Positions 47,038 to 63,192 of a DNA stretch of 64,000 nucleotides are shown in pieces. The notes under the pieces were generated by a model, which did not search any database, was not told the DNA's origin, and worked only from the letters and a program-made list of their open reading frames with translations. Location of the stretch: positions 2,147-66,146 of the forward strand of contig JBARBF010000007.1 of assembly GCA_049792755.1 (NCBI GenBank), written 5' to 3'. The stretch comes from Bacteroidales bacterium. Lineage in GTDB: Bacteria > Bacteroidota > Bacteroidia > Bacteroidales > VadinHA17. The position numbers and the translations under genes were made by a program. How positions within the stretch are numbered: position 1 is the first letter of the stretch; each line of letters starts with the position of its first letter.

Positions 47038-47229
47038 TTCTTAGAATGCTGCCATGTAACTGCTCTTTATGAAACTCATCTGCAACACCTTAGATGTCAG
47101 GAAGAGCAGATGTCCGAAATACTTTGATAAAAAATAACTTTTTTACAAAAGCTTAATTTTCAATTTAGAAGCAAACTAAAAAGTTGTATATTTGTTTAAC
47201 AGATAAAACAAACCTGACTAAAAGGAAAA

Positions 47230-47790: not shown

Positions 47791-47873
47791 CCTATTATAT
47801 CTGTTTCCTGTACATCTAAACGTTTGCCTGTCGGGCATGGCGACAGAATCCTCTTTTTTTTATATCCTGATGT

Positions 47874-47937
47874 GTGAATAATGTAACTTATTACAGGAAT
47901 AATGTAACTGATAGAGGTCTTGCAGGCTCTACCTTTG
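47874..47937 (+). promoter_or_regulatory. operator/promoter cassette A (GTGAATA-ATGTAAC-N14-ATGTAAC-N21-TACCTTTG)
   Basis: ATGTAAC at 47881 and 47902 (21-bp spacing). -7 box TACCTTTG at 47930. The first downstream gene starts at 48005. Confidence 0.7.
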
Positions 47938-48004
47938 TTGATGAAATGATTAACTCACTTTTTTAAAACTAATACCCGGGTTAACCTTTCGAACACTAAA
48001 ATCA

Positions 48005-48181
48005 ATGATTATGAAAAGTCTTTTTTATATAATAGCCTTGTTACTGATTCTTGCCTGGTCAATCGGATTTATAGGGTACGGAATAGGAGGAGCTATTCAC
48101 ATCTTACCGGTTCTTGCACTTGTTTCAGTTTTGATGAGGGTTATTCCTGAGATGAAATCAGTACGCAGGTATCCGGTTTAA
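48005..48181 (+). CDS. lmo0937-type small membrane protein (58 aa; below the ORF-track cutoff)
   Basis: My translation is MIMKSLFYIIALLLILAWSIGFIGYGIGGAIHILPVLALVSVLMRVIPEMKSVRRYPV. It resembles the second copy at 48577. Confidence 0.7.
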   Translation: MIMKSLFYIIALLLILAWSIGFIGYGIGGAIHILPVLALVSVLMRVIPEMKSVRRYPV

Positions 48182-48230
48182 ATATGAATAAGAAATATAA
48201 ATAGGTTAACAAATTAAAAAAATCAAAACA

Positions 48231-48557
48231 ATGAAAAAGATTATTTACTGTTTACTTGCAGCTTGCCTGGCAATAACATTATTCCCGATTCAGGCTTCTG
48301 CAGCAACTACTGATAAACCTTCTTCTTTAGTTGTTACAAAGCCTCCCGAACCTGTCGAATCGGCAGAAATAAAATCCTTGCTGAAAAGGGCTGACATGTT
48401 TAATACGACGAATGATTCAAAATTGATCCCGAAGGAAAAGAAAAGTACACAGATTGAAGTACGTTCAGAAGGACGTCATCATAGAAACGGAGGAGTAGTT
48501 TATGTTTCAGCCGGAGCAATAATTCTTGTTGTAATATTATTAGTGATTTTATTATAA
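48231..48557 (+). CDS. small secreted/tail-anchored protein, paralog 1
   Basis: 108 aa. Signal peptide, Pro/Ser/Lys-rich middle, and a C-terminal GGVVYVSAGAIILVVILLVILL anchor. Collinear with 48760..49080. Confidence 0.65.
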   Translation: MKKIIYCLLAACLAITLFPIQASAATTDKPSSLVVTKPPEPVESAEIKSLLKRADMFNTTNDSKLIPKEKKSTQIEVRSEGRHHRNGGVVYVSAGAIILVVILLVILL

Positions 48558-48576
48558 ACAATTAAAAACAAATATC

Positions 48577-48726
48577 ATGGGAAATCTACTTTATTTAGTT
48601 GCAGTAATACTGATAATTGCCTGGGCAATCGGATTCATAGGTTACAGTGCAGGTGGTATTATACACATACTCCTTGTTATTGCTGTAATAGCAATAATAC
48701 TTAGAGTAATTCAGGGAAGAAGATAA
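48577..48726 (+). CDS. lmo0937-type small membrane protein (49 aa; below the ORF-track cutoff)
   Basis: My translation is MGNLLYLVAVILIIAWAIGFIGYSAGGIIHILLVIAVIAIILRVIQGRR. Confidence 0.75.
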   Translation: MGNLLYLVAVILIIAWAIGFIGYSAGGIIHILLVIAVIAIILRVIQGRR

Positions 48727-48759
48727 TATTAAATAAACAATAAATTAAATTATAGTATC

Positions 48760-49080
48760 ATGAAAAAACTTGCAATTTGTTTAATGATGACATGCTTGTC
48801 ATTAACATTAATCCCGCTTCAATTAAATGCAGCAAATCGATCTGAACCATCATCTTTGCCTGCTTCAAAACCTTCAGAATCCTCGGAAGCAAAAACACTG
48901 GAATTAAGATTAAATGAAATAAATTCAATGGACAAGTCGAACATGAAATCGGCAGAAAAGAAAAGCTTGCGTAAAGAGGTAAAAACTATAAACCACAGAC
49001 TTCATAATATAAGTGGAGGTGTATACCTTTCAGCAGGTGCAGTAATACTTATTGTTATATTACTTATTGTATTATTATAA
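48760..49080 (+). CDS. small secreted/tail-anchored protein, paralog 2
   Basis: 106 aa. Same architecture as 48231..48557. Ends SGGVYLSAGAVILIVILLIVLL. Confidence 0.65.
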   Translation: MKKLAICLMMTCLSLTLIPLQLNAANRSEPSSLPASKPSESSEAKTLELRLNEINSMDKSNMKSAEKKSLRKEVKTINHRLHNISGGVYLSAGAVILIVILLIVLL

Positions 49081-49098
49081 TCAATTAAAAACAGGAAA

Positions 49099-49377
49099 AT
49101 GAATTCAGGAAAAGTATTGCTTGGAGTACTGGCAGGCGTTGCTGCCGGTGCATTGTTAGGGATACTATTTGCCCCCGACAAAGGTCAGAACACGCGCAAA
49201 AATATCGCTAAAAAAGGAGACGATTTTGCAGAAGGATTGAAAGAAAAATTCGATGAATTTCTCGAAAACGTATCGGCCAGGGTTGATGAAGTAAAGGAAG
49301 AAGTTTCCGATTTTGCCGAAAAAGCCAAGACTAAAGTTTCTGAAGCTAAAAAAGCGGCAAAAACTGCAACCGAATGA
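49099..49377 (+). CDS. YtxH-domain protein
   Basis: 92 aa. GVLAGVAAGALLGILFAPDKGQNTRKNI followed by a charged helical tail. Confidence 0.8.
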   Translation: MNSGKVLLGVLAGVAAGALLGILFAPDKGQNTRKNIAKKGDDFAEGLKEKFDEFLENVSARVDEVKEEVSDFAEKAKTKVSEAKKAAKTATE

Positions 49378-49424
49378 GTTGTTTCATGGCAGTCAATCTT
49401 TAGAAATCAGGATAAATAAATATT

Positions 49425-49838
49425 ATGGAAATAGAAACTTTGAGGATCATTCCTCCTCTGACAAAGAATTTCAGGTCATCAGATTGTACTTTCTTAGGAT
49501 TTAATCTCCCCTCTTTGATTTCAGCAATGAAACAAAGTTATGCATGGGCAAACGGAGAACTTAAAGCAAAGATTCTTTTAAAAAGTCCCGAAAAACAGAT
49601 GGTTCTTACTGCATTGCATGAAGGGACAGAAATAAAATCCTATCAGTCAAATGATTCTGTCACTTTTCAGATAATTCAGGGCAGACTCAGGGTTCATATC
49701 CGCAGGGATACAGTAACCCTGCATGAAGGTCAGCTGATGACACTTGATGAAAAAATAAAATACCGTCTCACGACCGGGGAAGAAACCGTGTTTCTTTTAA
49801 CAATTTCCAATAGTATTACAAGAGCCTCAAACAACTAG
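49425..49838 (+). CDS. small cupin-like protein
   Basis: 137 aa. The beta-rich core LTALHEGTEIKSYQSNDSVTFQIIQGRLRVHI..DTVTLHEGQLMTLDEKIKYRLTTGEETVFLLTI fits a single cupin barrel. The start is uncertain. Confidence 0.5.
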   Translation: MEIETLRIIPPLTKNFRSSDCTFLGFNLPSLISAMKQSYAWANGELKAKILLKSPEKQMVLTALHEGTEIKSYQSNDSVTFQIIQGRLRVHIRRDTVTLHEGQLMTLDEKIKYRLTTGEETVFLLTISNSITRASNN

Positions 49839-49878
49839 TAATGGCTGTGTTTGCAGAACCTAAATAATAAGGTAAGAC

Positions 49879-50220
49879 ATGGAAGATAATACCAGGTTAC
49901 TGGAATCGTTGCTTGAAAGAGCTTCGGAATACAGTAAAACAAGCTTTGAGTTGCTGAAGCTTAAGACACTCGACAAAACAACTAATGTTGTATCTTCATT
50001 GGTCCCACAATCTATTGTCCTTGTACTTATTGCATCTTTCATGCTTTTTTTAAATCTGGGATTAGCCTTATGGCTGGGCGATATCCTTGGCAAAGCCTTC
50101 TATGGATTCTTTGTAGTAGCCGGTTTTTATATTCTTGTCGGGATAGTAATTCATTTCTTCATGCATAACTGGATCAGGAAGCTTGTTGGGAACTATTTTA
50201 TTAAACGGATGCTTAAATAG
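49879..50220 (+). CDS. holin-X-like (DUF1469-type 'phage holin family') membrane protein
   Basis: 113 aa. An amphipathic N-terminal helix and then two TM helices. This architecture is commonly found next to YtxH genes. Confidence 0.6.
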   Translation: MEDNTRLLESLLERASEYSKTSFELLKLKTLDKTTNVVSSLVPQSIVLVLIASFMLFLNLGLALWLGDILGKAFYGFFVVAGFYILVGIVIHFFMHNWIRKLVGNYFIKRMLK

Positions 50221-50226
50221 GAACAG

Positions 50227-50607
50227 ATGCAACAGATAATTTCTTCAGCCGGACTTAAAGACGCAATTCAATTATTGGAGATTGAACAAGGAATAAAAGG
50301 GCAGTTATTAAAAGAACAGTTCTATCTGACTTATGAAAGTCTGAAACCTGTTAATCTAATCAAAAGCACTTTGAAGGAGATCTCTTCATCTCCATATCTG
50401 ATAGATAATATATCAGGTACTGCGATGGGTCTGCTCAGCGGGTTCCTTTCAAAGAAGATATTTGTTGGGACGTCAGGAAATCTGATACGAAAACTATTTG
50501 GTACTATCCTTCAGTTTGGTATTACAAATGTTGTTGCACATAATTCTGACGTAATCAAATCACTCGGACAGGCTTTGATTCAACATGTCATTCGTAAAAA
50601 GACCTAA
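50227..50607 (+). CDS. hypothetical protein
   Basis: 126 aa. Coding-like, tightly packed in the operon. I do not recognise any family. Confidence 0.45.
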   Translation: MQQIISSAGLKDAIQLLEIEQGIKGQLLKEQFYLTYESLKPVNLIKSTLKEISSSPYLIDNISGTAMGLLSGFLSKKIFVGTSGNLIRKLFGTILQFGITNVVAHNSDVIKSLGQALIQHVIRKKT

Positions 50608-50618
50608 TTCCATCAGTC

Positions 50619-51719
50619 ATGCAGGGTGAAGAATTAAAGCTTCCATTTTACGCAAAGGTTACCATATTCCTTTTGGGCTTAATTGCTTTATTAGCAATAA
50701 TGTATGTTGCAAAAAGCATTATTATCCCTGTAGTTTTCGCAATAATCATTGCAATAGTACTCCACCCCGTGGTAAATTATATGGTGCGGATAAAAATTAA
50801 CAGGATATTAGCTATTATCCTCACAATGTTTCTTACTTTTTTAGTAATTGCCGCATTTGGCGCCGTTTTGTTTTCCCAGGCAAGCAAGTTTGGGGAATCG
50901 TGGCCTGTACTGGTCGGTAAATTTACCTCTCTGCTTAACCAGAGCATCGCAGATGCAGCCGATTATTTCAATAAGGATCCGCAGAAAATCCATGATTGGA
51001 TTACGAAAACCCAGGGTGAAATAATCAACATTAGTACTGCTGCTATCGGACAAACAATAGTCCTTCTCGGCAATGGTTTGATAATATTATTATTAATACC
51101 TTTTTACATCTTCATGATATTATTTTATCAGCCTTTATTAATTGAGTTTATTCGCAGACTCTCCGGGACAAATTACCAAAGTCATGTCAGGCAGATAGTT
51201 TCCCAGATAAAAACTGTTATTCAACGCTATCTTGTGGGGTTGGTTATCGAAGCAGTCCTGATGGCAGCGATGAATACCGCAGCTCTTTTAATACTTGGAA
51301 TCGAATATGCCTTCATTCTTGGCATTCTTGCAGCATTGCTCAATGTAATTCCCTACATCGGGGGGATCATTGCTGTTGCGATGCCGATGATGGTAGCCCT
51401 GGTCACCAAACCTTCACCCTGGTACGCTTTTTACATTCTGGCAGCTTATTATATTATCCAATTGATAGACAATCACTATATCGTTCCATATATTGTTGCT
51501 TCAAAAATAAAAATCAATGCGTTATTCTCCGTAATAGTTGTTCTTGCCGGAAATGCTTTATGGGGTATACCCGGAATGTTTCTATCGATGCCTGTACTTG
51601 CCATAATAAAGCTCATTTGCGACCATATAGAACCATTAAAACCGTGGGGCTATTTATTAGGTGATACCATGCCGCCATTACTTAAAATCAAAACGATATT
51701 AAAAAAAATAACTAAATGA
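50619..51719 (+). CDS. AI-2E (PerM/YhhT) family transporter
   Basis: 366 aa with about 8 TM helices. Conserved LLNVIPYIGGIIA and GIPGMFLSMPVLA blocks. Confidence 0.8.
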   Translation: MQGEELKLPFYAKVTIFLLGLIALLAIMYVAKSIIIPVVFAIIIAIVLHPVVNYMVRIKINRILAIILTMFLTFLVIAAFGAVLFSQASKFGESWPVLVGKFTSLLNQSIADAADYFNKDPQKIHDWITKTQGEIINISTAAIGQTIVLLGNGLIILLLIPFYIFMILFYQPLLIEFIRRLSGTNYQSHVRQIVSQIKTVIQRYLVGLVIEAVLMAAMNTAALLILGIEYAFILGILAALLNVIPYIGGIIAVAMPMMVALVTKPSPWYAFYILAAYYIIQLIDNHYIVPYIVASKIKINALFSVIVVLAGNALWGIPGMFLSMPVLAIIKLICDHIEPLKPWGYLLGDTMPPLLKIKTILKKITK

Positions 51720-52207
51720 TTGAATTCTCTGAACAATTATCAGGTCTGGAACAAAGTTTAATGAAGTATGCATATCACCTTAAATTAAGCAATGATGATG
51801 CGAGAGATCTTGTTCAGGAAACTTTTCTGAAAGCACTTTTGAGCCGGGAAAAATATGTAGATACCGGATTTCTAAAAGCCTGGACCATGACAATTATGAG
51901 AAACACATTTATCAATAGCTACAGGCATAATGTTCTGCATAACACCCATTGTGACCGTACTGATGAGGAATATTACATAAATCAGACAAAATGTTCAGGT
52001 TCAGACGACCCCGATTCCGTATATTCTGTTATGGAAATTACGAAAAGTATTGAACAATTAAAAGGAAAATTCAGGGTGCCATTTAAAATGTATGTTGCCG
52101 GTTACAGGTACAGGGAAATAGCTGATAAGTTTAATCTCAATCTAGGGACAGTAAAAAGCAGAATATTCCTGGCAAGAAAAGTGCTGATTAATCGAATAAA
52201 CTGTTAA
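51716..52207 (+). CDS. sigma-70-family (ECF-like) RNA polymerase sigma factor
   Basis: 163 aa. Region 2 (DLVQETFLKAL...AWTMTIMRNTFINSYR) and region 4 HTH (YREIADKFNLNLGTVKSRIFLARKVL). Its ATG overlaps the AI-2E stop (ATGA). Confidence 0.8.
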   Translation: MIEFSEQLSGLEQSLMKYAYHLKLSNDDARDLVQETFLKALLSREKYVDTGFLKAWTMTIMRNTFINSYRHNVLHNTHCDRTDEEYYINQTKCSGSDDPDSVYSVMEITKSIEQLKGKFRVPFKMYVAGYRYREIADKFNLNLGTVKSRIFLARKVLINRINC

Positions 52208-52252
52208 CCGGAATAAAAGGTATAATAACCTCATTTTAATATTAAACCATAC

Positions 52253-52316
52253 GTGAATTATGTAACTCTTTCAGATAGTTATGTAACACTTACAAAAAGC
52301 CAAAATCCTAATTTTG
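52253..52316 (+). promoter_or_regulatory. operator/promoter cassette B
   Basis: GTGAATT-ATGTAAC (52260) -N14- ATGTAAC (52281) -N21- TAATTTTG (52309). Spacing is identical to cassette A. Confidence 0.7.
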
Positions 52317-52393
52317 TTATGATTAAGAAATGCAAACTATAAATAAGTGATCATGACTTATTATAAGATTTTGAAAATTTCAGCTTTGTCAAT

Positions 52394-52696
52394 ATGAAAT
52401 CTATCATTAAAGTTTCAGTATTATTCCTGATAATTATTGCTTCTGTAATATTTACAAAACAGGCATCAGCTCAGCAATCCAATGTAAGTTTCCAGGTTTT
52501 CTACGATCAACTGAGTCCCTACGGAGATTGGGTAAATTATCCTAATTGGGGGTATGTATGGATTCCTGATGCCGGACCTGATTTTGTACCTTATTCGACT
52601 AATGGTCATTGGATCCTGACTGACTTTGGATGGACATGGATGTCTGATTACAGTTGGGGATGGGCGCCATTTCATTATGGGGGCTGGGGTAAATAA
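52394..52696 (+). CDS. small secreted W-rich (YxWGxW-type repeat) protein, possibly C-terminally truncated
   Basis: 100 aa with a signal peptide. WGYVWIPDAGPDFVPYSTNGHWILTDFGWTWMSDYSWGWAPFHYGGWGK, then a stop. Confidence 0.6.
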   Translation: MKSIIKVSVLFLIIIASVIFTKQASAQQSNVSFQVFYDQLSPYGDWVNYPNWGYVWIPDAGPDFVPYSTNGHWILTDFGWTWMSDYSWGWAPFHYGGWGK

Positions 52697-52957
52697 ATTG
52701 ATTTTCAAGCTATTTAATTATTGTTATCTATGATTCCTGATACTCATATAAGATTTTATTCTGAAAGTCATCGTTTACCGTTAATCGTTAAGCGGTGACT
52801 TTTTTAAATTTTCAGTAGATCTTATAATAATCAGGAGGTAGCAGCAAGAATACTTATATCTCTGAATCTGCCATCCCTTACCAGACAGATTGTTTTTGCA
52901 AAATAAATTATCCGGATATATTCAATCAGATTGACCAGCGCGTAATCAAATAGAATA

Positions 52958-53794
52958 ATGAAAAAAATAAACCCTGTTATTAAGGTAAAAAGCATTGCAA
53001 AGGAGCAATCCATAAAACTCAGTGAAAAAGCTATTGCAAAAACAGTGGTGGCACACAACTTTTTGACAGACATGGCTGACTTCTTTTTATTTCTTTCACA
53101 TACATGTAAAGACACTTTTTCAAGAGATTTTGAGTTCAAAGAGTTTTTACGTCAGTCATTTAAGATCGGATATAAATCATTGCCCCTTATTTCTGTGACC
53201 GGATTAATTATGGGATTGGTACTTACTATTCAGGCGAGGCCATCATTGGTTCATTTTGGTGCAGTATCTTTACTTCCGGGTATGGTAGCCGTATCTCTTA
53301 TCAGGGAAATGGGGCCGGTTATCACCGCACTGATCTGTGCGGGTAAAATTGGTTCCGGGATGGGGGCAGAGTTAGGTTCGATGAAGGTGACAGAACAGAT
53401 TGATGCTATGGAAGTATCATCCACCAATCCAATGAAATTTTTAGTAGTTACCAGGGTATTGGCTGCCACATTGATGATACCTTTGCTGGTAATATATTCT
53501 GACACTCTTGGTATCCTGGGAAGCTGGGCTGGAACAAATATTAAAGGTGATGTGCCTTTTGTACTATTTTGCTCACAAGCTTTTAGCCATCTTGAGTTTA
53601 TTGATTTTTTACCAGCTGTTATAAAATCGTTCTTTTTTGGTGCAGTAATCGGACTTGTTGGATGCTATAAGGGATATACAGCCGGTCGCGGAACAGAAAG
53701 TGTAGGTATTGCAGCTAATTCTGCCGTAGTCGTTTCCTCATTGCTTGTAATAATTGTCGACCTGATTGCAGTGCAGATTACTGATTTATTATGA
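52958..53794 (+). CDS. mlaE: MlaE-family ABC transporter permease
   Basis: 278 aa. Conserved REMGPVITALICAGKIGSGMGAELGSMKVTEQIDAME block. The start may be the downstream ATG at 53069. Confidence 0.85.
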   Translation: MKKINPVIKVKSIAKEQSIKLSEKAIAKTVVAHNFLTDMADFFLFLSHTCKDTFSRDFEFKEFLRQSFKIGYKSLPLISVTGLIMGLVLTIQARPSLVHFGAVSLLPGMVAVSLIREMGPVITALICAGKIGSGMGAELGSMKVTEQIDAMEVSSTNPMKFLVVTRVLAATLMIPLLVIYSDTLGILGSWAGTNIKGDVPFVLFCSQAFSHLEFIDFLPAVIKSFFFGAVIGLVGCYKGYTAGRGTESVGIAANSAVVVSSLLVIIVDLIAVQITDLL

Positions 53795-53818
53795 TATAAT
53801 TTGAAAATTTGAAAGTTA

Positions 53819-54595
53819 ATGAATTCTGCAATGACCGCGACTAAAATTCCGGACAAAATGAAAAGCCTTGAACCGGTTATTGAAATAAATGACCTTAGGA
53901 AAGGATTTGGTACTCAGGAAGTCTTAAAAGATGTGTCATTAAAACTTTTTAAAGGTGAAAACCTGGCAGTACTTGGAAAATCAGGCTCGGGAAAATCTGT
54001 CCTGATAAAATGCATTGTCGGTTTATTTAATCCTGATTTCGGAACTATAAATGTGCTCGGAGAAAACGTGAGTCAATTAAGCAATGATAACTTAGGGGAG
54101 TTACGAAAGAAGATTGGTTTTCTTTTTCAGAGTGGTGCGCTTTATGATTCCATGAATGTAAGACAAAACCTGGAATTTCCTCTAAAGAGAATAAAAAAGG
54201 ATCTCACTCAAAAAGAAATTAATGAAAAAGTAAATGAAGCCCTGGAGAATGTCGGATTGGCTGATGCTATTGACAAGATGCCATCGCAGCTCTCAGGAGG
54301 AATGCGTAAACGGATCAGTCTTGCTCGAACAATAGTTGTTGACCCAATGATCATTTTATATGATGAACCAACAACCGGACTTGATCCTGCAACTTCAGAT
54401 GAAATAAGTTCACTCATTAATGATGTTCAGAAAAAATATAAAACTTCTTCACTTATAATCACTCATGATATAGAGTGTGTTCGTAATACGGCAAACAGGT
54501 TAATAATGTTGAATGACGGAGTAGTTTATAAGGTAGGTGAATTAGCGGAATTTGAAAAGTCCTCTGATTCATTAATCAGATCATTCTTTAAATAA
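53819..54595 (+). CDS. mlaF: MlaF-type ABC transporter ATP-binding protein
   Basis: Walker A GKSGSGKS, signature LSGGMRKR, Walker B ILYDEPTTGLD. Confidence 0.85.
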   Translation: MNSAMTATKIPDKMKSLEPVIEINDLRKGFGTQEVLKDVSLKLFKGENLAVLGKSGSGKSVLIKCIVGLFNPDFGTINVLGENVSQLSNDNLGELRKKIGFLFQSGALYDSMNVRQNLEFPLKRIKKDLTQKEINEKVNEALENVGLADAIDKMPSQLSGGMRKRISLARTIVVDPMIILYDEPTTGLDPATSDEISSLINDVQKKYKTSSLIITHDIECVRNTANRLIMLNDGVVYKVGELAEFEKSSDSLIRSFFK

Positions 54596-54631
54596 TTATT
54601 ATATAAGTATCAGATTTTAAAACCATAAAAA

Positions 54632-55354: not shown

Positions 55355-55494
55355 CTCTCCGGAAAAATTATTGAAGCTCTTCGCAGCAAGCTACAAAAAA
55401 TCTTCGATCCCCTAAGGTAAATTCTTGATGCCCGCTGACTTCGCAGCAAGTAACGATGAATGCGCTCGCGGGGATTCAAAAATGGTAAGCCCAA

Positions 55495-57330
55495 ATGTAT
55501 TCCAAAATATTTTTCATATCTGTTCTTGTTTGTTTTACCAGTGCTTATTCATCAGCCCAGGAAACTCCTGTTAAATCAGACTCCACTCATATTTATAAAG
55601 ATATTGAAACCTATTCGAAGAGAAACAAGTTTAATACTTTCATGTACCGGTTAATTTTCAAACCGATCACCATAATATCAAAAAAAGAGGTCAAAAAGAA
55701 AGCTTATAAAAAACTGATCCAGAAACCATACAGCATCTTCCAGGGTAAAATTATCAGGAAAATCGATATTGTTACCCTTGATCCTTTCGGTTACTCAGCC
55801 ACCGATACCACTTCAACAGAGCAGACCAGATTAACTAATATCGGAAATTATTTACATATTAAAACACGGATTATTGCTATCCGGAACTTGTTGCTTATCC
55901 ATAAAAATGAACTATTTAATTCTTTTTATGTAAAAGAGTCTGAACGCCTTATCCGCACCCAGAAATTTGTGCATGATGTTTTTTTTTACGTTGCTTCTTC
56001 AGGACCAAAATCTGATTCTGTAGATATTTTTATACGCGAATTGGATAACTGGAGTATCGCTGGTGAAGCAGCCATTTCCACTTCACATACTACGATTGGA
56101 TTATCAGATAATAATTTTCTGGGAACAGGACATGAATTTCAAAATGTCTTCTCCAGAAATATTAGTGCCGGGATCAGCAAATTCAGTACCAATTATCTCA
56201 TTCCGAATATAATGACTACTTACATCAACTCCAATCTGCACTATGAAGTTGACGGATATGGAAACATCAGAAGAAGTCTGGCTGTTGACCGGCCATTCTA
56301 TTCTCCTTATGCCAAATGGGCAGGAGGAATTTCTTTTGCCACTCAGGTAAAAAGAGATTCACTTGCAGGTATGAATCCTCTGTATGTTCCAATAAACTTA
56401 AAATTTAAAACACAGGATTTTTGGGCTGGCAAAGCAATTCAGATTTTCAAAGGCTCAACAGAAGATGAGCTTGCAACTAATTTAATATTATCTGCCCGGT
56501 ATCTCCGTATCAGATATCTCCAGAAACCAAATGATATTAATGACCCTTTGCAAATGTATTCCAACGAGGATTTTTACTTGACAGGAATAGGAATTTCCAC
56601 ACGTAAATATGTCCAGGATAAATATATCTTTAAATATGGGACAATTGAGGATGTCCCGGTCGGAAAGATTATTGAACTGACCGGAGGTTACCAGTTAAGA
56701 AACAGTTCCTGGCGACCATATTTGGGAATGCGGTTTTCCTTCGGAAACTATAATGAATGGGGATACCTGAGCACTAACTTTGAATATGGAACTTTTTTCC
56801 GGGCATCTCATACTGAACAGAGTGTCATTACTATCGGTGTAAACTATTTCACAGGATTATTTGAAATCGGGAATTGGAGATTCAGGCAATTCGTAAAGCC
56901 ACAGGTTACCATAGGAATAAACAGGTTCTCTTACGATACCTTGACTCTCAATGATGATCGAGGTATTAATGGATTTAACAGCAGGGGTTTGGTGGGGACT
57001 AACCGTCTGCTGTTTATGCTACAAACACAATCATATGCTCCCTGGAATTTTTTCGGATTCCATTTCGGACCTTTTCTCGTCTATTCAGCAGGTATGCTAG
57101 GAGATGCAATATCGGGTTTTAAAAACCGGAAATTATATTCTCAGATAGGCTTTGGAGTTTTAATAAAAAATGAAAACCTGGTTTTTGGAACCTTTCAGAT
57201 CTCGTTATCATTTTTTCCATTGATCCCCGGGAATGGTCAGAATATTTTTAAAATGAACTCATTCAGTACCAACGATTTCGGATTCAGGGATTTTGTGATC
57301 GGGGAACCTGCTCCGGTGTTATACAGGTAG
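55495..57330 (+). CDS. hypothetical secreted protein, possibly an outer-membrane beta-barrel
   Basis: 611 aa. Signal peptide and beta-rich, aromatic-rich sequence. Follows mlaFED on the same strand. I do not recognise a confident family. Confidence 0.4.
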   Translation: MYSKIFFISVLVCFTSAYSSAQETPVKSDSTHIYKDIETYSKRNKFNTFMYRLIFKPITIISKKEVKKKAYKKLIQKPYSIFQGKIIRKIDIVTLDPFGYSATDTTSTEQTRLTNIGNYLHIKTRIIAIRNLLLIHKNELFNSFYVKESERLIRTQKFVHDVFFYVASSGPKSDSVDIFIRELDNWSIAGEAAISTSHTTIGLSDNNFLGTGHEFQNVFSRNISAGISKFSTNYLIPNIMTTYINSNLHYEVDGYGNIRRSLAVDRPFYSPYAKWAGGISFATQVKRDSLAGMNPLYVPINLKFKTQDFWAGKAIQIFKGSTEDELATNLILSARYLRIRYLQKPNDINDPLQMYSNEDFYLTGIGISTRKYVQDKYIFKYGTIEDVPVGKIIELTGGYQLRNSSWRPYLGMRFSFGNYNEWGYLSTNFEYGTFFRASHTEQSVITIGVNYFTGLFEIGNWRFRQFVKPQVTIGINRFSYDTLTLNDDRGINGFNSRGLVGTNRLLFMLQTQSYAPWNFFGFHFGPFLVYSAGMLGDAISGFKNRKLYSQIGFGVLIKNENLVFGTFQISLSFFPLIPGNGQNIFKMNSFSTNDFGFRDFVIGEPAPVLYR

Positions 57331-57427
57331 AATCCTTAAATTGCACAGACCTTAGCTATTATGCCTTCATTCCATTGCGTCGTTGAGCCACTGAGCCACT
57401 GTGCCTTTGCCTCTTACTCTCCAATAT

Positions 57428-57491
57428 GTGAATAATGTAACTCTTTCTAATAGTTATGTAATGGTAAAGGGTAGTATGAGGAGTATCTTTG
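57428..57491 (+). promoter_or_regulatory. operator/promoter cassette C
   Basis: GTGAATA-ATGTAAC (57435) -N14- ATGTAAT (57456) -N21- TATCTTTG (57484). Confidence 0.7.
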
Positions 57492-57514
57492 AGTTAAACT
57501 AATAAATCAAAATC

Positions 57515-57700
57515 ATGCCACTATTAACTATTTTAATCGTACTAATTGTTGCAGGCGTTCTACTGTGGCTTGTCAATAATTATATCCCAATGGACCATAA
57601 GATAAAAAACATCCTCAACGCTGTCGTAGTAGTAGTTGTTGTTGTATGGCTTTTAAAAGTTTTTGGGGTTTTCGTTTACCTAAGGGATATTCATCTTTAA
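57515..57700 (+). CDS. Thivi_2564-type small membrane protein
   Basis: 61 aa. MPLLTILIVLIVAGVLLWLVNNYIPMDHKIKNILNAVVVVVVVVWLLKVFGVF. Confidence 0.65.
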   Translation: MPLLTILIVLIVAGVLLWLVNNYIPMDHKIKNILNAVVVVVVVVWLLKVFGVFVYLRDIHL

Positions 57701-57811
57701 TAATGCATATTGAAGTTTTTGAATGTGATTGTTTCTTTTTGGGCAATTCTGGTAAATGTTTATATCGCTTCTTAAGTTTCATTAACTTGCATATAAATAA
57801 TTACAATTATA

Positions 57812-60334
57812 ATGGACCCAAACTCAAAACCATTCTGGAGCCTATCTGTCACAGAATTACTTGTCAATTTTAAATCGACAGCAACAGGACTTACATCAGA
57901 AGATGCAAAAAAACGTCTTATTGAATATGGTACAAATCGTCTGAAGCCTCAGAAACGGTCAGATGCTTTTACGCTCCTTATCGGCCAGTTTAAAAGCCCT
58001 ATAATTCTTATTCTTTTATTTGCAACCGGTCTTTCATTGTTTTTGCATAATATTGTTGATGCTTCAATCATTCTTGTAATTGTACTCATAAGCGGACTTC
58101 TTGGGTTCTGGCAGGAACATGGTGCATCTGATGCGGTTGCAAAATTACTTGCAATTGTACAAATAAAAACAGCTGTATTACGCGATGGAGGTCAACGGGA
58201 AATTCATATTGAAGATGTTGTACCGGGTGATATCGTTGTTCTGAGTGCAGGTGATATAGTTCCGGGAGACTGTCTGCTTCTTGAATCAAAGGATCTTTTT
58301 GTTGATGAAGCTATGCTTACCGGGGAAACTTACCCGGTTGAAAAATTTGTTTCAGAGCTGGCGGCAGATACTGCTCTCTCAAAACGGACTAACTCCGTTT
58401 GGATGGGAACCCATATTGTAAGCGGAAATGCTAAGGCATTAGTTACACTTACTGGCAAAAACACAGAGTTTGGAAAGGTTTCGGAACGGCTTAAACTCAA
58501 ACCCCCGGAAACCGAATTTGAACGGGGCATACGGAGATTCGGCTATTTTCTTGGAGAAGTTACACTGTTCCTGGTAGTTATTATATTTGCCATTAATGTC
58601 TATTTACACCGGCCCGTTCTGGAATCATTTCTTTTTTCACTGGCCCTTGCTGTCGGATTAACTCCGCAATTATTACCTGCAATTATCAGCATCAACCTGG
58701 CACATGGTGCAAAAAAAATGGCTCAGAAGAAGGTTATCGTCAAAAGGCTTGCCTCTATAGAAAATTTTGGAAGCATGAATGTTATCTGTTCTGATAAAAC
58801 CGGTACCCTTACTGAAGGAACCGTAAAGGTAGAATCGGCGCTGGATGTTAACGGAGAGGCCAGCGATAAGGTATTCCTGTTTGCATATCTCAATGCATTT
58901 TACGAAACAGGATTTACTAACCCTATTGATCAGGCTATTCTTAATTATCGCAAGATTGACCTGTCGGATTATCGGAAACAGGATGAAATTCCATATGATT
59001 TCCTTCGGAAACGCCTGAGCATAGCTGTCATAAAAGAAAATGCTCATATTATGGTGACAAAAGGGGCATTGACCAACATACTGGAAGTGTGTTCATCAGC
59101 GGAAACCAAGGAAGGAAATATAGTTGACCTTGGATCTGTGAAGGATAAGATACAGAAACATTTTGAAGAATTCAGCAATAATGGTTTTCGCACTCTGGGT
59201 ATTGCTTATAAAAATATACCTGCGGATACTCTTATTAGTAAAAGCGATGAGAAGGAGATGATATTCTCAGGTTTTCTTACACTTTTTGATCCGCCAAAAG
59301 CAAATATCATCAATACAATTTCAAAGCTGAAGAAGCTTGGGGTATCTCTTAAAATTATAACAGGTGACAATCATCTTGTGGCGGCCAGCATCAGCAAAAA
59401 GATGGGTCTCTCGGATAATAAAATTATAAGTGGTCCTGAGCTCCGCCAGATGAGCGATGCCGCTTTGCTCAGAAGTGTTGGTTCAGTCGATGTATTTGCA
59501 GAAATAGAGCCCAACCAGAAAGAAAGGATTATTATAGCCATGAGGAAGGCCGGAAACGTTGTAGGATATATGGGTGATGGAATAAATGATGCCTCGGCAC
59601 TTCATGCTGCAGATGTTGGGATCTCTGTCGATACCGCAGCAGATGTAGCCAAGGATGCTGCCGATATTGTCCTGCTCGAAAAAGACCTGGGTGTCCTGAT
59701 TGAAGGCGTGAGAGAAGGACGTTCAACATTTGCCAATACTCTTAAATATGTATTTATGGCCACGAGCGCCAATTTTGGAAATATGTTCAGCATGGCCGGA
59801 GTATCGCTTTTTATTCCTTTTCTGCCATTGCTGCCCAAACAGATACTTCTCACCAACCTGATGACCGACTTTCCGGAAATGACAATCGCCACAGATAATG
59901 TTGATGATCAAATGATCGACTATCCACGTCGATGGGATATTAAGGCAATCCGTAAGTTTATGATCACCTTTGGACTTGTAAGTTCATTCTTTGACTATCT
60001 GACATTTGGCCTGCTGTTACTGATATTACATGCAAATGAGGGTCAGTTCAGAACCGGATGGTTTATAGAATCGGTTATTTCTGCATCAATGATTGTCCTT
60101 GTTATCCGGAGCAGAAAACCTTTTTTCAGGAGCAGACCCGGAAAATATCTGTTGATAGCAACATTATCGATAGCTGTTATTACATTGGTATTCCCGTTCA
60201 CACCGCTGGGAAATGTTTTTGGATTCAGCCCTTTAACCCTTTCAACATATTTATTCCTGGTGATGATAATTGCTGTTTATATTCTTGCCGCAGAAATTAC
60301 CAAAAGAATTTTTTATAAAAAGGTGAAATTTTAA
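57812..60334 (+). CDS. mgtA: magnesium-translocating P-type ATPase
   Basis: 840 aa. DKTGTLT phosphorylation site, TGDN and GDGINDA. MgtA-type C-terminal block NTLKYVFMATSANFGNMFSMAG...FLPLLPKQILLTNLMTDF. Confidence 0.8.
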   Translation: MDPNSKPFWSLSVTELLVNFKSTATGLTSEDAKKRLIEYGTNRLKPQKRSDAFTLLIGQFKSPIILILLFATGLSLFLHNIVDASIILVIVLISGLLGFWQEHGASDAVAKLLAIVQIKTAVLRDGGQREIHIEDVVPGDIVVLSAGDIVPGDCLLLESKDLFVDEAMLTGETYPVEKFVSELAADTALSKRTNSVWMGTHIVSGNAKALVTLTGKNTEFGKVSERLKLKPPETEFERGIRRFGYFLGEVTLFLVVIIFAINVYLHRPVLESFLFSLALAVGLTPQLLPAIISINLAHGAKKMAQKKVIVKRLASIENFGSMNVICSDKTGTLTEGTVKVESALDVNGEASDKVFLFAYLNAFYETGFTNPIDQAILNYRKIDLSDYRKQDEIPYDFLRKRLSIAVIKENAHIMVTKGALTNILEVCSSAETKEGNIVDLGSVKDKIQKHFEEFSNNGFRTLGIAYKNIPADTLISKSDEKEMIFSGFLTLFDPPKANIINTISKLKKLGVSLKIITGDNHLVAASISKKMGLSDNKIISGPELRQMSDAALLRSVGSVDVFAEIEPNQKERIIIAMRKAGNVVGYMGDGINDASALHAADVGISVDTAADVAKDAADIVLLEKDLGVLIEGVREGRSTFANTLKYVFMATSANFGNMFSMAGVSLFIPFLPLLPKQILLTNLMTDFPEMTIATDNVDDQMIDYPRRWDIKAIRKFMITFGLVSSFFDYLTFGLLLLILHANEGQFRTGWFIESVISASMIVLVIRSRKPFFRSRPGKYLLIATLSIAVITLVFPFTPLGNVFGFSPLTLSTYLFLVMIIAVYILAAEITKRIFYKKVKF

Positions 60335-60457
60335 AGTACCTGGTCATCTGAATCAGGAATTATAGAGAATAAACAAATGATAAAATCCGATTTATTGAAA
60401 ATAAGGGCATTAACTTGATTATAATGCGTACTTTGGCCAAATATTAAAATTATAATT

Positions 60458-60649
60458 ATGAGTACAGGAACAGTAAAATTTTTTAATAATTCCAAAGGAT
60501 TTGGATTTATTAAGGACGGTGCATCAGAAAAGGAATACTTTGTACATGTATCGGGCCTGAATGATGAGATCAGGGAAAATGATGAAGTAACTTTTGATCT
60601 TCAGGAAGGTAAAAAAGGATTAAATGCCATAAATGTTAAACTGGTGTAA
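60458..60649 (+). CDS. cspA: cold-shock domain protein
   Basis: 63 aa. GTVKFFNNSKGFGFI (RNP1) and FVHVS (RNP2). Confidence 0.9.
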   Translation: MSTGTVKFFNNSKGFGFIKDGASEKEYFVHVSGLNDEIRENDEVTFDLQEGKKGLNAINVKLV

Positions 60650-60785
60650 TTTGAATATTATATAAGACATTTATTATGAAGAGGCTGTCTCAAAAGGGTA
60701 GCTTCTTTTTTTTGTTTTCCATTGCTTAGTGGTACCCTCCTCTCCCATTCAACCTTTGCGCCTTTGTGCCGTTACATAATAATAT

Positions 60786-60849
60786 GTAAATAATATAACA
60801 TTTATTAAGAATTGTGTAACTCTTTTGCTTCAGGCAGCTTTTATCTTTC
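60786..60849 (+). promoter_or_regulatory. operator/promoter cassette D (degenerate copy)
   Basis: GTAAATA-ATATAAC (60793) -N14- GTGTAAC (60814) -N21- TATCTTTC (60842). Spacing is the same but several consensus positions differ. Confidence 0.5.
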
Positions 60850-60874
60850 AATAATATTTTAATAATAAAATATT

Positions 60875-61084
60875 ATGAAAAAAGCCGGAATCTTTATTGT
60901 AATACTTGGGTTAGCATTAACCATTTTTACCGCCATTACTTTTTTTACCAGGGAGAAAGTAGCTGATATCGGAAGTATTAAAATTACAGCAAACAAAGCA
61001 CATCATCTAAACTGGTCACCTCTTTTAGGAATTGCCGTAATGGTAGTTGGTGGAGTCGTGGTTTATATGTCGCCAAAAAAATAA
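60875..61084 (+). CDS. small two-TM membrane protein
   Basis: 69 aa with two hydrophobic helices. Preceded by cassette D. Confidence 0.5.
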   Translation: MKKAGIFIVILGLALTIFTAITFFTREKVADIGSIKITANKAHHLNWSPLLGIAVMVVGGVVVYMSPKK

Positions 61085-61243
61085 CAGGTTTTTAAGCCGA
61101 ATGCTGTTATTCTCAACAAAGCAACCATCAGAAAATGTAACATTTAAAATCAATGCTTGGTCTCTTAGTGCCATTGTGCCGTTGTACCATTATACCGTTG
61201 CACCTTTGTGCCGTTGTACCGTAACGCCATTGTGTCATTATAC

Positions 61244-61307
61244 GTGAATGATGTAACTTATTCCTATAGTTATGTAAGAGATCCCGGTATTAATAGTCTC
61301 ACCTTTG
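61244..61307 (+). promoter_or_regulatory. operator/promoter cassette E
   Basis: GTGAATG-ATGTAAC (61251) -N14- ATGTAAG (61272) -N21- CACCTTTG (61300). Confidence 0.65.
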
Positions 61308-61343
61308 TGTTGTGAAATTATTTTCACAATTAAAAGTACAAAA

Positions 61344-61697
61344 ATGAAAAAAATGAAAGAGTCACTTAAAAACGTTAAATGGTTCATCTATTTAATCTCT
61401 CTGACAGGAATTGGATTATTTTTCAACTCATGTGTGGGTGGATATATTGCAACAGAGCCAGTTTACACCGAGTATGCAAGACCACAACGACTTAATGAAA
61501 CCCAAATCTGGATAGATGGCGACTGGGGTTGGAACAACCAAACTCATGTTTACGTACAAAAGGCAGGTTACTGGGCACAACCCAGGCAGGGTCAGTCATA
61601 TGTGGCTGGTAGCTGGAAGACAACTCAGCATGGAAAATCATGGACTAAAGGTCATTGGCAAAAACAAGCCCGTCAGAAAGACAGCCGTGGACGGTAA
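61344..61697 (+). CDS. small W-rich lipoprotein-like protein
   Basis: Start moved to the ATG at 61344 (MKKMKESLK...) because the track start overlaps the -7 box. Lipobox-like FFNSC. WIDGDWGWNNQTHVYVQKAGYWAQP...GSWKTTQHGKSWTKGHW repeats. Confidence 0.55.
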   Translation: MKKMKESLKNVKWFIYLISLTGIGLFFNSCVGGYIATEPVYTEYARPQRLNETQIWIDGDWGWNNQTHVYVQKAGYWAQPRQGQSYVAGSWKTTQHGKSWTKGHWQKQARQKDSRGR

Positions 61698-61797
61698 TTG
61701 TATTAAAAATCCAAAATCCTCATGAAAAGCAAACAATACTTTTAGTAATCATTTCTTAAAACTGTGTTTGTCTGCAGGAACGTTTAATATATTAAAT

Positions 61798-61835
61798 GAA
61801 GCCGGATACCGTCAGGGTCTCCGGCTTGTTGTTTT
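61798..61835 (+). terminator. rho-independent terminator
   Basis: GAAGCCGGA (61798-61806) pairs with TCCGGCTT (61820-61827), followed by GTTGTTTT. Confidence 0.65.
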
Positions 61836-61863
61836 GAAACAATCTTAGTAATTTATTAAATGT

Positions 61864-61927
61864 GTGAATCATACAAATTTGATAAGCAATTGTGTAACAA
61901 TTCTGCTGCGTTAACAACTTACCTTTA
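61864..61927 (+). promoter_or_regulatory. operator/promoter cassette F (upstream of the second regulator gene)
   Basis: GTGAATC-ATACAAA (61871) -N14- GTGTAAC (61892) -N21- TACCTTTA (61920). A leader hairpin ATCGGGCA...TGCCCGAT follows at 61927-61966. Confidence 0.55.
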
Positions 61928-62049
61928 TCGGGCAATGTTTCAATTATTTTTTAGTTTATGCCCGATCTCCTTATAATAGACTGAATAGCTTTGATTAAAG
62001 TATTTCATGTTCATGGACAGAATTGTATTAATACTGAATTTCAAAAATA

Positions 62050-62610
62050 ATGAAGCTCTATATTAAAAATATGGTGTGCGACCGCTGCAAAGCGACAGTT
62101 AAAACTGAACTTGATAAACTGGCTATCCGATATCTTTCATTGGATTTAGGTGAAGTCATTATCAGGAAAAAACTGACGTCAGAGCAACATCATTTATTGC
62201 AGTTGTCGTTGGAACAGTTTGGATTTGAATTGATAGACGATAAGAAAAAAGATCTTATTGAAAAATTGAAGAGAGCCATTTTTGATCTTGAAAGGTATTC
62301 TGACGAAGATTTAAAAACAAGTTATTCGGATTTCATCAGTCTGAGTGTAAATGACAACTTCATTTCCCTTAACACCCTCTTTTCAGAGATAGAAGGTATA
62401 ACAATTGAAAAATATATAATCAAACAAAAGATTGAGCTGGTAAAAGAATTGCTCGGTCATAATAATCTCAATATTACAGAAATAGCGGTGAAAATGCATT
62501 ACAGTGATGTCGCCCACTTGTCCAGCGAGTTTAAAAGCATTACGGGTCTTACGCCATTGCACTTCCGTCAACTGCGGCACATCAGTTATAAAAATCAGGA
62601 GATCAGTTGA
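62050..62610 (+). CDS. AraC-family transcriptional regulator with an N-terminal HMA-like (CxxC) domain, paralog 2
   Basis: 186 aa. MKLYIKNMVCDRCKATVKTELDKL... Collinear with 47230..47790. AraC HTH (LNITEIAVKMHYSDVAHLSSEFKSITGLTPLHF). Confidence 0.8.
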   Translation: MKLYIKNMVCDRCKATVKTELDKLAIRYLSLDLGEVIIRKKLTSEQHHLLQLSLEQFGFELIDDKKKDLIEKLKRAIFDLERYSDEDLKTSYSDFISLSVNDNFISLNTLFSEIEGITIEKYIIKQKIELVKELLGHNNLNITEIAVKMHYSDVAHLSSEFKSITGLTPLHFRQLRHISYKNQEIS

Positions 62611-62716
62611 ATATTATTATGAAATCATCTTCTTCAATGGTTACGAGACAACCGGTCATATGTAAAGACTGAAATGTTCTTAAAAGACTTTCTTAATCAA
62701 CTTCCGGGATACATGA

Positions 62717-62845
62717 ATGAAAAGGTATATGATCAGGTTTGTTGATATTTCAAAATTTGTTGAAATGCTGGGAGGAAACATACATATGGAAAGCAAACCG
62801 GGTAAAGGGAGCCTGTTTGCATTTCCATTACCGACCTATATATAA
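62717..62845 (+). pseudogene. C-terminal remnant of a histidine-kinase HATPase_c domain
   Basis: The 42-codon frame reads MKRYMIRFVDISKFVEMLGGNIHMESKPGKGSLFAFPLPTYI*. The G2-box/C-terminal pattern (..MGG.I...S..GKGS.F.F.LP) is present, but the rest of the kinase is missing. Confidence 0.6.
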
Positions 62846-62893
62846 TTGACAATATATTTAACCGTCTGAATTATTAAGGTTTTCAGTCTATCT

Positions 62894-62957
62894 GTGAATT
62901 ATGTAACAATTTGTAAAAATTTTGTAACAATTCGAATCACAAAAAACAGGATTTTTA
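62894..62957 (+). promoter_or_regulatory. operator/promoter cassette G
   Basis: GTGAATT-ATGTAAC (62901) -N14- TTGTAAC (62922). The -7 position (62950) reads GATTTTTA, which is a weak match. Confidence 0.5.
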
Positions 62958-63192
62958 TTAAGTCAAAATATAAAAATAAAACAATGAAAATTCTTATAAC
63001 CGGATTGTTGTTGAATCAAGGGGCAAAAAAGAACCTGCCGGTAATAATAGCTCAACAACTGAAAGAGCAAAGAACAGGAGAACAGTAATAACAATAAAAA
63101 ATATACACGAACCACTGACACTCCTATAAATACAATAACAGCTATCTTAGGTCTTTAAAACAAATAATAAAATATTTAAAACAAAAATTCAG

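Follow-up and report, generated by a model that had tools for sequence, protein, structure and literature searches.

The window analysed here is a 64,000-nt stretch from a Bacteroidales bacterium of the VadinHA17 lineage (GenBank assembly GCA_049792755.1, contig JBARBF010000007.1, positions 2,147 to 66,146 of the forward strand). Its last 16 kb carry seven copies of a 64-bp promoter-like element, referred to below as the cassette, together with two genes for AraC-type proteins, regulators 1 and 2. The seven cassettes, A to G, align without gaps on the plus strand and start at 47874, 52253, 57428, 60786, 61244, 61864 and 62894. Each has a distal box at cassette positions 1-14 (GTGAATnATGTAAC), a second (A/G/T)TGTAAC at positions 29-35, 21 variable nucleotides and a TAnnTTTG-like box at positions 57-64 (the -7 box). 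A first-pass annotation of the window had proposed these seven ungapped sites with spacings of 21, 21 and 49; the sites were confirmed and the spacings were exact on recount. Its statement that every site carries TAnnTTTG stood for A, B and C, in which the box is perfect, but D, E and F deviate by one mismatch and G by two. The sigma-A box TAnnTTTG of Flavobacterium psychrophilum occupies -12 to -5 (PMC9723704), a placement that predicts the transcription start (+1) at cassette position 69.

Scores for the individual cassettes were obtained with an external matrix of 72 nt, built solely from cassettes in other genomes. Cassette A (47874..47937; 56.0 bits) has its distal box at 47874-47887, its proximal TGTAAC at 47903-47908 and the -7 box TACCTTTG at 47930-47937, with the predicted +1 at 47942. 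Cassette B (52253..52316; 52.2 bits) carries the -7 box TAATTTTG and has its predicted +1 at 52321. Cassette C (57428..57491; 58.7 bits) has a proximal TGTAAT, the -7 box TATCTTTG and a predicted +1 at 57496. Cassette D (60786..60849; 39.0 bits) is degenerate, reading GTAAATAATATAAC with two core mismatches and the -7 box TATCTTTC (predicted +1 at 60854). The top-scoring copy in the window is cassette E (61244..61307; 65.6 bits), with a proximal TGTAAG, the -7 box CACCTTTG and a predicted +1 at 61312, and the weakest is cassette F (61864..61927; 37.6 bits), with a distal ATACAAA, three core mismatches, the -7 box TACCTTTA and a predicted +1 at 61932. Cassette G (62894..62957; 44.9 bits) carries the -7 box GATTTTTA (predicted +1 at 62962).

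The gene for regulator 1 and the genes that follow the cassettes lie on the plus strand. The gene for regulator 1 (47230..47790, TTG start) has no cassette upstream of it and is followed by a terminator-like hairpin (47828..47846) and then by cassette A. Downstream of A lies operon A, ten genes at 48005..52207, which encode, in order, an lmo0937/DUF5670 peptide, a 108-aa protein, a second DUF5670 peptide, a 106-aa protein, YtxH, a cupin-like protein, a holin-X-like membrane protein, a 126-aa protein, an AI-2E transporter and an extracytoplasmic function (ECF)-type sigma factor. The first gene after cassette B encodes a small secreted DUF6600 protein (52394..52696; Pfam PF20245, 59.6 bits). A terminator-like hairpin at 52775-52798 follows this gene, which suggests that mlaEFD is transcribed separately from the cassette B unit in the window; elsewhere, mlaE can come directly after a cassette. 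Between mlaD and cassette C lies a gene for a 611-aa protein (55495-57330) with no Pfam or NCBIfam match. Cassette C is followed by the gene of a 61-aa membrane protein of the Thivi_2564 family (57515-57700; NF041949, 77.6 bits) and by mgtA, for a Mg2+-translocating P-type ATPase (57812-60334; TIGR01524 equivalog, 817 bits against a cutoff of 611). The small protein encoded before mgtA is thus a membrane protein, whereas enterobacterial mgtA has an mgtL-type leader peptide instead. Downstream of cassette D is a gene for a hydrophobic 69-aa protein (60875..61084), and downstream of cassette E one for a W-rich, lipoprotein-like 117-aa protein (61344..61697). The gene for regulator 2 (62050..62610) begins 122 nt after cassette F. 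Directly after cassette G lies a 34-aa open reading frame (ORF), a candidate gene (62984..63088), and then a CheB methylesterase/CheR methyltransferase fusion whose sole canonical start is the GTG at 63193 and which continues past the window edge at 64000 (Pfam CheB_methylest 180 bits, CheR_N 48 bits). Upstream of the whole island, between a 192-aa ORF and an Omp85-like gene, a tRNA gene lies on the minus strand (45443-45513; Rfam RF00005, 61 bits). The gene calls made previously were upheld, including the ten-gene operon with its AI-2E transporter and sigma factor, mgtA, mlaEFD, cspA, CheB/CheR and two AraC paralogues, of which the one at 62050 has its own cassette.

Within the window, the core pattern GTGAATNATGTAAC-N15-TGTAA is exact at five of the seven sites, the exceptions being D (two mismatches) and F (three). 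Allowing up to three mismatches gave seven matches, against 0.08 expected from 100 shuffles. When each site was held out in turn, the matrix trained on the others returned it as the top non-training position on either strand. The external matrix gave 37.6-65.6 bits at exactly seven window sites, the degenerate D and F included; the next best position in the window scored -10.5 bits and the maximum over the first 47 kb was -18.9 bits. No cassette was found by matrix or pattern scans in the first 47 kb or on the whole minus strand, as had been claimed at the outset. Isolated half-sites, for example upstream of mlaE, cspA or regulator 1, did not occur in the window beyond chance, and lone 15-mer matches at 10549 and 18566 are within chance expectation. 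The spacer sequences are entirely different among the copies, and only the transcription-factor-sized blocks and the -7 box are kept.

The cassette is not confined to this genome. When one genome for each GTDB species was scanned for exact copies of GTGAATNATGTAAC-N15-TGTAA, at least 120 matches emerged. Those listed are nearly all from Bacteroidota and come from many orders: Bacteroidales of the Marinilabiliales type (Paludibacter, Mariniphaga, Maribellus, Carboxylicivirga, Labilibaculum, Lentimicrobium), Chitinophagales, Cytophagales (Emticicia, Cyclobacteriaceae), Flavobacteriales (Lutibacter, Yeosuana), Sphingobacteriales and Saprospiraceae. From these listed matches we took 120 8-kb loci (cassette-anchored loci). 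A second set of 81 loci (AraC-anchored loci, 462 kb in total) was chosen solely for a regulator homologue of 66-90% identity, from the listed matches of a metagenome scan and from one complete genome. Most of the loci studied are metagenome-assembled genomes or metagenome contigs, and all loci collected yielded 366 distinct cassettes of at least 25 bits. The taxonomic outliers include a Prosthecochloris bin with one strong cassette (L007, 57 bits), an FCB group bin (L046) and a Saccharibacteria bin (L057) whose four cassettes, regulator and two-component genes indicate that it is probably a misbinned Bacteroidota contig. A match in a Spirochaetia genome (L044) fails the matrix and was rejected as a chance pattern match.

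Conservation in the foreign sites extends to bases that the search pattern did not specify. These include AATGT before GTGAAT, A25, R26, T27, T28 and R29, C35 and A36, and in the -7 box A58, c59, C60, T61, T62, T63 and G64. The proximal element, AATnRTGTAAC, is a truncated copy of the distal one placed 21 bp downstream. Using A58 and T61-63 as the test for a box in register, we found the -7 box in register at 109 of the 137 independent sites, those in which the box lay outside the search; it was displaced to -1 in 11 and never to +1 or +2. The 'n' bases of TAnnTTTG are not free, as C occupies position 60 in 74% and position 59 in 53% of sites (tAcCTTTG) and T57 is present in only 43%; such a C-rich box, seen for example at 47932-47933, may mark activator-dependent promoters. 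A -33 TTTG element, which would lie about 19-21 nt upstream of the -7 box, is not conserved, positions 33-37 reading AAC-A-n and belonging to the proximal repeat, and its absence fits activator dependence. Only 31 of the 366 cassettes lie within open frames of at least 120 codons, compared to 72% of random 50-mers from the same loci. Of 140 cassettes, 125 have an ATG-initiated ORF of at least 40 aa that begins no more than 300 nt downstream; the median distance from the box is 41 nt. The cassette is a genuine promoter-like element that is conserved across the phylum Bacteroidota, and not a local repeat. The circuit was at first described as compact and self-contained; with cassettes in many Bacteroidota orders, the window instead holds one island of a phylum-wide regulon.

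Cassettes are genetically linked to the AraC-type regulator. At least one cassette was present in 78 of the 81 AraC-anchored loci (140 cassettes in 462 kb), and a homologue of the regulator N-terminal domain was found in 25 of the 120 cassette-anchored loci. The scan of related Bacteroidota that had been proposed with the seven sites hence returned sites that are intergenic, directed toward genes and accompanied by the regulator. In 55 cassettes, T2-G3-A4 of GTGAAT is the in-frame TGA stop codon of an AraC-like ORF ending in LENV, LGNV, ENV, ENM or GNV (L021, L031, L078, L082, L087, L099, L126-L140 and others), so that operator and regulator gene overlap physically. In the window and its closest relatives (L121-L125, L147), the regulator stop and the cassette are separated by a gap of 79-87 nt, 84 nt in the window, that holds a terminator-like hairpin; most relatives lack such a gap. 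Among the clustered ORFs of the 120 cassette-anchored loci, the regulator is the sole frequent DNA-binding family; the remaining common neighbours belong to the target families or are two-component proteins that lack a DNA-binding output. The two-component neighbour cluster comprises kinases, receivers and three sigma-54 activators. The recognition helices of the regulator, YTYLxNLFSE and HYSSVAHLSNQFKK, are nearly invariant across orders, which we regard as matching the conservation of the operator. In some loci the AraC genes are themselves preceded by cassettes. Divergent cassettes lie 147-193 nt upstream of the start of CxxC-type regulators in L151, L165, L167, L169, L173, L178 and L194, where the regulator could influence its own promoter region; none lies upstream of 47230 in the window.

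Regulators 1 and 2 are 186-aa paralogues with 53% identity. By their C-terminal DNA-binding domain, as judged from sequence and from a structural model, both can be assigned to the AraC/XylS family: HTH_18 and HTH_AraC scored 65.1 and 39.8 bits in regulator 1 and 47.0 and 31.1 bits in regulator 2, against Pfam cutoffs of 33.6 and 26.6 bits. An AlphaFold2 model of regulator 1 (pLDDT 86) predicts a β-α-β-β-α-β domain (residues 1-62), a long helix (64-82) and a seven-helix AraC DNA-binding domain. In the N-terminal domain, strands are predicted at 2-6, 28-32, 35-38 and 60-61 and helices at 11-23 and 44-56, with pLDDT of about 90. Foldseek matched the DNA-binding domain to AraT, YesN, GadX, AdpA, MarA and SoxS (root-mean-square deviation 2.1-2.8) and the N-terminal domain to the HMA metallochaperones CopZ, Atx1, GolB and HAH1 (TM-scores 0.62-0.67 to the target over 65-69 columns). 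These share the β-α-β-β-α-β fold, and in the CxxC subfamily of the regulator the two cysteines occupy the β1-α1 loop, like those of GMxCxxC. Unlike them, neither window protein matched Pfam HMA PF00403 at E <= 0.01, and the only weak match was PDB 2kyz (E = 0.23). C13 is invariant. At position 10, 79 of 106 homologues have Cys, the two window proteins among them, and the other 27 have S, T or N. The label 'HMA-AraC' given previously is hence apt for the fold, according to the model and Foldseek, but not for a Pfam HMA match or a universal CxxC, and the 27 replacements of the first Cys do not support a canonical metal-sensing HMA domain across the whole family. A search with the N-terminal domain found 1,859 clusters (50% identity, one representative each), of which 463 reached E <= 1e-10; every protein found is short and has this one architecture. 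NCBIfam holds no specific model for the regulator, and we found no described case in the literature of an HMA-like fold fused to a DNA-binding domain.

The residue at position 10 separates two subfamilies that differ in gene context. In the 79 homologues of CxxC type, a cassette lies at or just after the stop codon in 58, upstream in none, and a histidine kinase gene lies downstream in 3. In the 23 of SxxC type, the corresponding numbers are 6, 10 (about 90 nt upstream) and 11. The SxxC operon consists of a cassette, the regulator, a hybrid PAS-HisKA-HATPase-REC kinase and a 143-aa single-domain receiver (L012, L014, L021, L029, L056, L057, L061 and L067, and L113 and L120). The cassette upstream of the gene marks the SxxC subfamily as predicted to be autoregulated. 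Regulator 1 is a typical CxxC type, and regulator 2, in which the helix-turn-helix residues are divergent, a divergent CxxC protein.

From the sequence and by analogy with AraC/XylS activators, we consider it likely that the cassette is a promoter activated by the 186-aa HMA-like/AraC regulator in the class II manner, through two tandem protomers. In this model, which derives binding, stoichiometry, activation, transcription start and signals from the computed architecture, conservation, placement, linkage, fold and gene content, the housekeeping sigma factor and the activator would use each cassette together as a promoter. Relative to the predicted start, the proximal repeat A-R-T-T-R-TGTAAC would span about -47 to -33 and the distal AATGT-GTGAATnATGTAAC about -72 to -55. 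Two regulator protomers would occupy the two direct repeats, 21 bp or two helical turns apart and on one face of the DNA, and the proximal protomer would replace the missing -33 contact and recruit sigma-A RNA polymerase. Regulator 1 is encoded just upstream of cassette A and lacks a cassette of its own. Cassette A would drive operon A, B would drive DUF6600, C the Thivi_2564-family protein and MgtA, and D and E small envelope proteins. The weaker cassettes, F before regulator 2 and G before the CheB/CheR sensor gene that follows it, may add a feed-forward or positive-feedback layer. The output in the window would thus comprise small membrane and envelope stress proteins, the AI-2E transporter, MgtA and the ECF sigma factor. 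In the CxxC subfamily, the HMA-like domain may take in the signal as a thiol or metal switch. In the SxxC subfamily, the signal may arrive by phosphorelay, since the neighbouring genes of its members encode a hybrid PAS histidine kinase and a single-domain receiver.

A different view of the same cassettes is that they are regulated promoters recognised by a factor encoded elsewhere, such as an alternative or ECF sigma factor with TGTAAC as its -35 element or some other transcription factor, and that the AraC genes are mere members or neighbours of the regulon. TGTAAC does resemble the 'AAC' -35 elements of ECF sigma factors, an ECF-type sigma gene stands at the end of operon A, and AraC genes are cassette targets in some loci, where co-location could mean membership and not control. 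Nothing is conserved, however, 16-17 nt after either TGTAAC (positions 52-56 carry low information), and a sigma-A-type box lies at 21 nt instead. An ECF sigma promoter was rejected on this spacing and on co-occurrence, since only 1 of the 120 cassette-anchored and 1 of the 81 AraC-anchored loci have a homologue of the window sigma factor near a cassette; the operon A sigma factor is a lineage-specific passenger. No other DNA-binding family is enriched among cassette neighbours, the CxxC regulator genes are not targets given that the cassette follows 58 of 79 and precedes none, and the stop codon of the regulator is embedded in the operator in the 55 cases described above. We therefore regard recognition by a factor other than the AraC proteins as unlikely. 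A LytTR-type regulator, whose repeats also have a 21-bp period, was considered and set aside, as no LytTR output occurred in the top 25 neighbour families, although no dedicated search of every ORF was made. A structured RNA was likewise rejected: Rfam at E <= 1 over 44000-64000 gave only the tRNA, and the cassette lies upstream of the predicted start.

If the HMA-like AraC proteins do bind the cassette, they might act mainly as repressors or dual regulators that block the -33 region until a signal arrives. The proximal repeat overlies the position of a would-be -33 element, divergent cassettes precede the regulator gene in some relatives at the 147-193 nt given above, and a putatively homologous island of F. 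psychrophilum is silent in 64 of 64 samples. A silent regulon is equally consistent with an activator that stays off, and there is no conserved -33 TTTG for a repressor to mask. In addition, the 21-nt spacing to the -7 box is kept to within 0-1 nt in 88% of sites, which is a hallmark of polymerase-contacting activators, and AraC/XylS proteins on tandem repeats abutting the -35 region are typically activators (AraC, XylS, RhaS, MelR). Repression as the main mode of action thus appears improbable. The clustering of seven copies in 15 kb on one strand could also suggest local duplication of a dispersed repeat, a mobile-element remnant or a chance AT-rich intergenic similarity with no regulatory role. 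This is effectively refuted: only factor-sized blocks and the -7 box are conserved while the spacers are wholly different, the same blocks recur in hundreds of sites across orders, the intergenic and orientation biases are strong, and 0.08 chance matches were expected. Activation by the HMA-like AraC protein has its own difficulties. The model does not account for the C that is conserved at -9 in the -7 box; the repeats are unequal, with GTG in the distal copy only, so that one protomer and another factor are possible; both recognition helices of regulator 2 are divergent, and the protein may not recognise this operator; and the co-occurrence of regulator and cassette was scored per locus.

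The mode of action proposed here is, by analogy, of a known kind, that of the AraC/XylS class II activators. At araBAD of Escherichia coli, the proximal site overlaps the -35 region of a promoter without a good upstream hexamer, and activation is class II. The AraC I1-I2 sites share with the cassette the AraC DNA-binding domain of the regulator, direct-repeat half-sites and the 21-bp period. AraC differs in having a jelly-roll arabinose-binding and dimerisation domain where the regulator here has a 62-residue HMA-like ferredoxin fold. The present system also differs in its -7/-33 promoter type, that of Bacteroidota, in serving a multi-operon regulon and not one catabolic operon, and in showing no evidence for a distal looping site. 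The Pm promoter of the TOL plasmid has two tandem 15-bp repeats for XylS 21 bp apart, the proximal one overlapping the -35 by a few bases, and its spacing is strict. XylS, in contrast, has a benzoate effector domain at its N terminus, a single target promoter and recognition sequences other than those of the cassette. MarA, SoxS and Rob, on which the DNA-binding domain of the regulator model superimposes, are likewise small AraC-type proteins that control a large number of scattered stress genes; their asymmetric box, about 20 bp long, stands at fixed distances from the promoter. MarA and SoxS are single-domain monomers that are controlled by abundance and bind one box, whereas the cassette has two boxes, and its regulator carries a sensor-like domain at the N terminus as well as a long linker helix. 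What appears to be new is the combination of sensor domain and output, the conservation across a phylum, the role in a stress regulon and an operator embedded in the stop codon of the regulator gene.

The first genes downstream of cassettes outside the window were assigned to Pfam families, 125 of them in the cassette-anchored and 111 in the AraC-anchored loci. Families noted in both sets, with the cassette-anchored count first, were OmpA (12/125 and 3/111), CsbD (10/125 and 9/111), ice-binding-like proteins (6/125 and 2/111), AraC (5/125 and 3/111), DUF5670/lmo0937 (4/125 and 15/111), OMP barrels (OMP_b-brl_2; 2/125 and 5/111) and receivers (Response_reg; 2/125 and 3/111). Gly-zipper proteins (7/125), MlaE (4/125), DUF4142 and DUF6600 (3/125 each), and Usp and ferritin (2/125 each) were noted in the cassette-anchored set, and cupin (10/111), histidine kinase (4/111), peptidase M48 (2/111) and SOD (1/111) in the AraC-anchored set. 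For YtxH, which is not listed as a first downstream gene, homologues occurred near cassettes in 8 of the 120 cassette-anchored and 13 of the 81 AraC-anchored loci. CsbD/YjbJ, YtxH, lmo0937, OsmB-like Gly-zipper proteins, Usp and Dps typify the sigma-B and RpoS regulons, and the gene content therefore reads as a general stress set related to water, envelope and stationary phase. The first-pass annotation had suggested an envelope and ion-stress circuit; the envelope part is retained and the ion-specific part is not, as the gene families point to general stress. A caution is that the 'general stress' label comes from gene families, and for many of these no function is known.

Genes of the window recur in the same company elsewhere. 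The gene order of operon A also follows the regulator in locus L121, and members of the operon have homologues in 7-14 of the 81 AraC-anchored loci, except for the sigma factor. The Thivi_2564-family protein is the first downstream gene at six cassettes elsewhere, and an MgtA-type ATPase lies near cassettes in 9-14 loci. Homologues of the 69-aa protein lie near cassettes in three cassette-anchored and two AraC-anchored loci, and an orthologue of the 117-aa protein with the same leader is present in L089. The 611-aa protein has homologues near cassettes in 5 of 120 loci and may belong to the regulon neighbourhood. In L113, the CheB/CheR-type protein extends into HisKA-HATPase and adjoins an AraC homologue.

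To our knowledge, Bacteroidota have no RpoS, sigma-B or EcfG-type system. Sigma-B of Bacillus and Listeria, RpoS of E. coli and EcfG-PhyR-NepR of Alphaproteobacteria control overlapping gene content (CsbD/YjbJ, YtxH, lmo0937-type peptides, Gly-zipper/OsmB-like and OmpA-like proteins, Usp, Dps/ferritin), and, as in those systems, the regulator gene is linked to a sensor kinase and a single-domain receiver. They all depend on an alternative sigma factor, whereas the cassettes keep a housekeeping -7 box and add an upstream activator site. A tentative reading, somewhat short of an even chance in our judgement, is that the cassette and the HMA-like AraC proteins form a general stress switch of Bacteroidota that is based on an activator and has two paralogous inputs. 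As part of this tentative switch, the CxxC input might be a thiol or metal switch in the metallochaperone-like domain, and the phosphorelay of hybrid kinase and single receiver might act on the SxxC subfamily, perhaps by contacting the HMA-like domain. The full-text literature, with subscription journals outside the coverage, gave no description of the motif, of the regulator family or of a general stress regulon in Bacteroidota, in agreement with the first reading of the window, which knew no characterised regulon with this operator.

Bacteroidota dominate guts, soils, peat and oceans, and their general stress and dormancy response is poorly understood. The analysis yields a promoter of defined length (64 bp), a regulator family for which the prediction is strong, a conserved target set and a linked kinase/receiver module. 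The cassette can serve as a marker for annotating stress genes, many of them without known function, in thousands of uncultured genomes, and could also serve as an inducible promoter part in Bacteroidota genetics. The pairing of an HMA-like domain with an AraC DNA-binding domain would be a new combination of sensor and output.

In F. psychrophilum (LT670843.1), a block at about 1.333-1.392 Mb surrounds THC0290_1150, the gene of a 179-aa AraC protein (PMC9723704, Tables S2 and S4). Expression of its genes ranks with the lowest in each of the 64 samples, and no sigma-A start was mapped over about 42 kb. The block holds genes for a single-domain receiver, UspA, a peptidoglycan-binding protein, an ABC permease and ATPase, and a GH130/GT1 pair; such a pair also follows operon A and CsbD in L121. 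The block may be a homologous stress island, and it would then fit an activator-dependent regulon that was off throughout. The F. psychrophilum promoter strings are only 61 nt long. Among them, the T_0932 promoter of an M48 peptidase gene contains GTTGTGTAAC, but its heptamer is 7 nt out of register and it was rejected as a cassette.

Some cassettes are followed by a further element at the start of the predicted transcript. In the window, the palindrome GTGAAATTATTTTCAC (61312..61327, plus strand) starts at the predicted +1 of cassette E and folds as RNA at -5.8 kcal/mol (z = -2.45). The form GTGAA-N6-TTCAC occurs at the predicted +1 of 37 of the 366 cassettes and 3 nt later in 9 more, compared to about 1.7 expected. 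Loci that bear it include L019, L038, L045, L066, L074, L088, L097, L103, L114 and L133, and the genes that follow encode CsbD, ice-binding-like, DUF6600-like and lipoprotein products. Folded as RNA, the palindrome gives a hairpin of -4 to -6 kcal/mol at the 5' end; in function it could equally be such a hairpin or the operator of a second, dimeric factor. A further GC-rich leader hairpin, CTGTnCCGCCAGnnGCGGaAA, follows the palindrome in L051, L069, L084, L090, L101, L114, L043 and L013. It is absent from the window, gives -12 kcal/mol (z = -3.1) when folded jointly with the +1 hairpin and may be an undescribed element of the 5' untranslated region.

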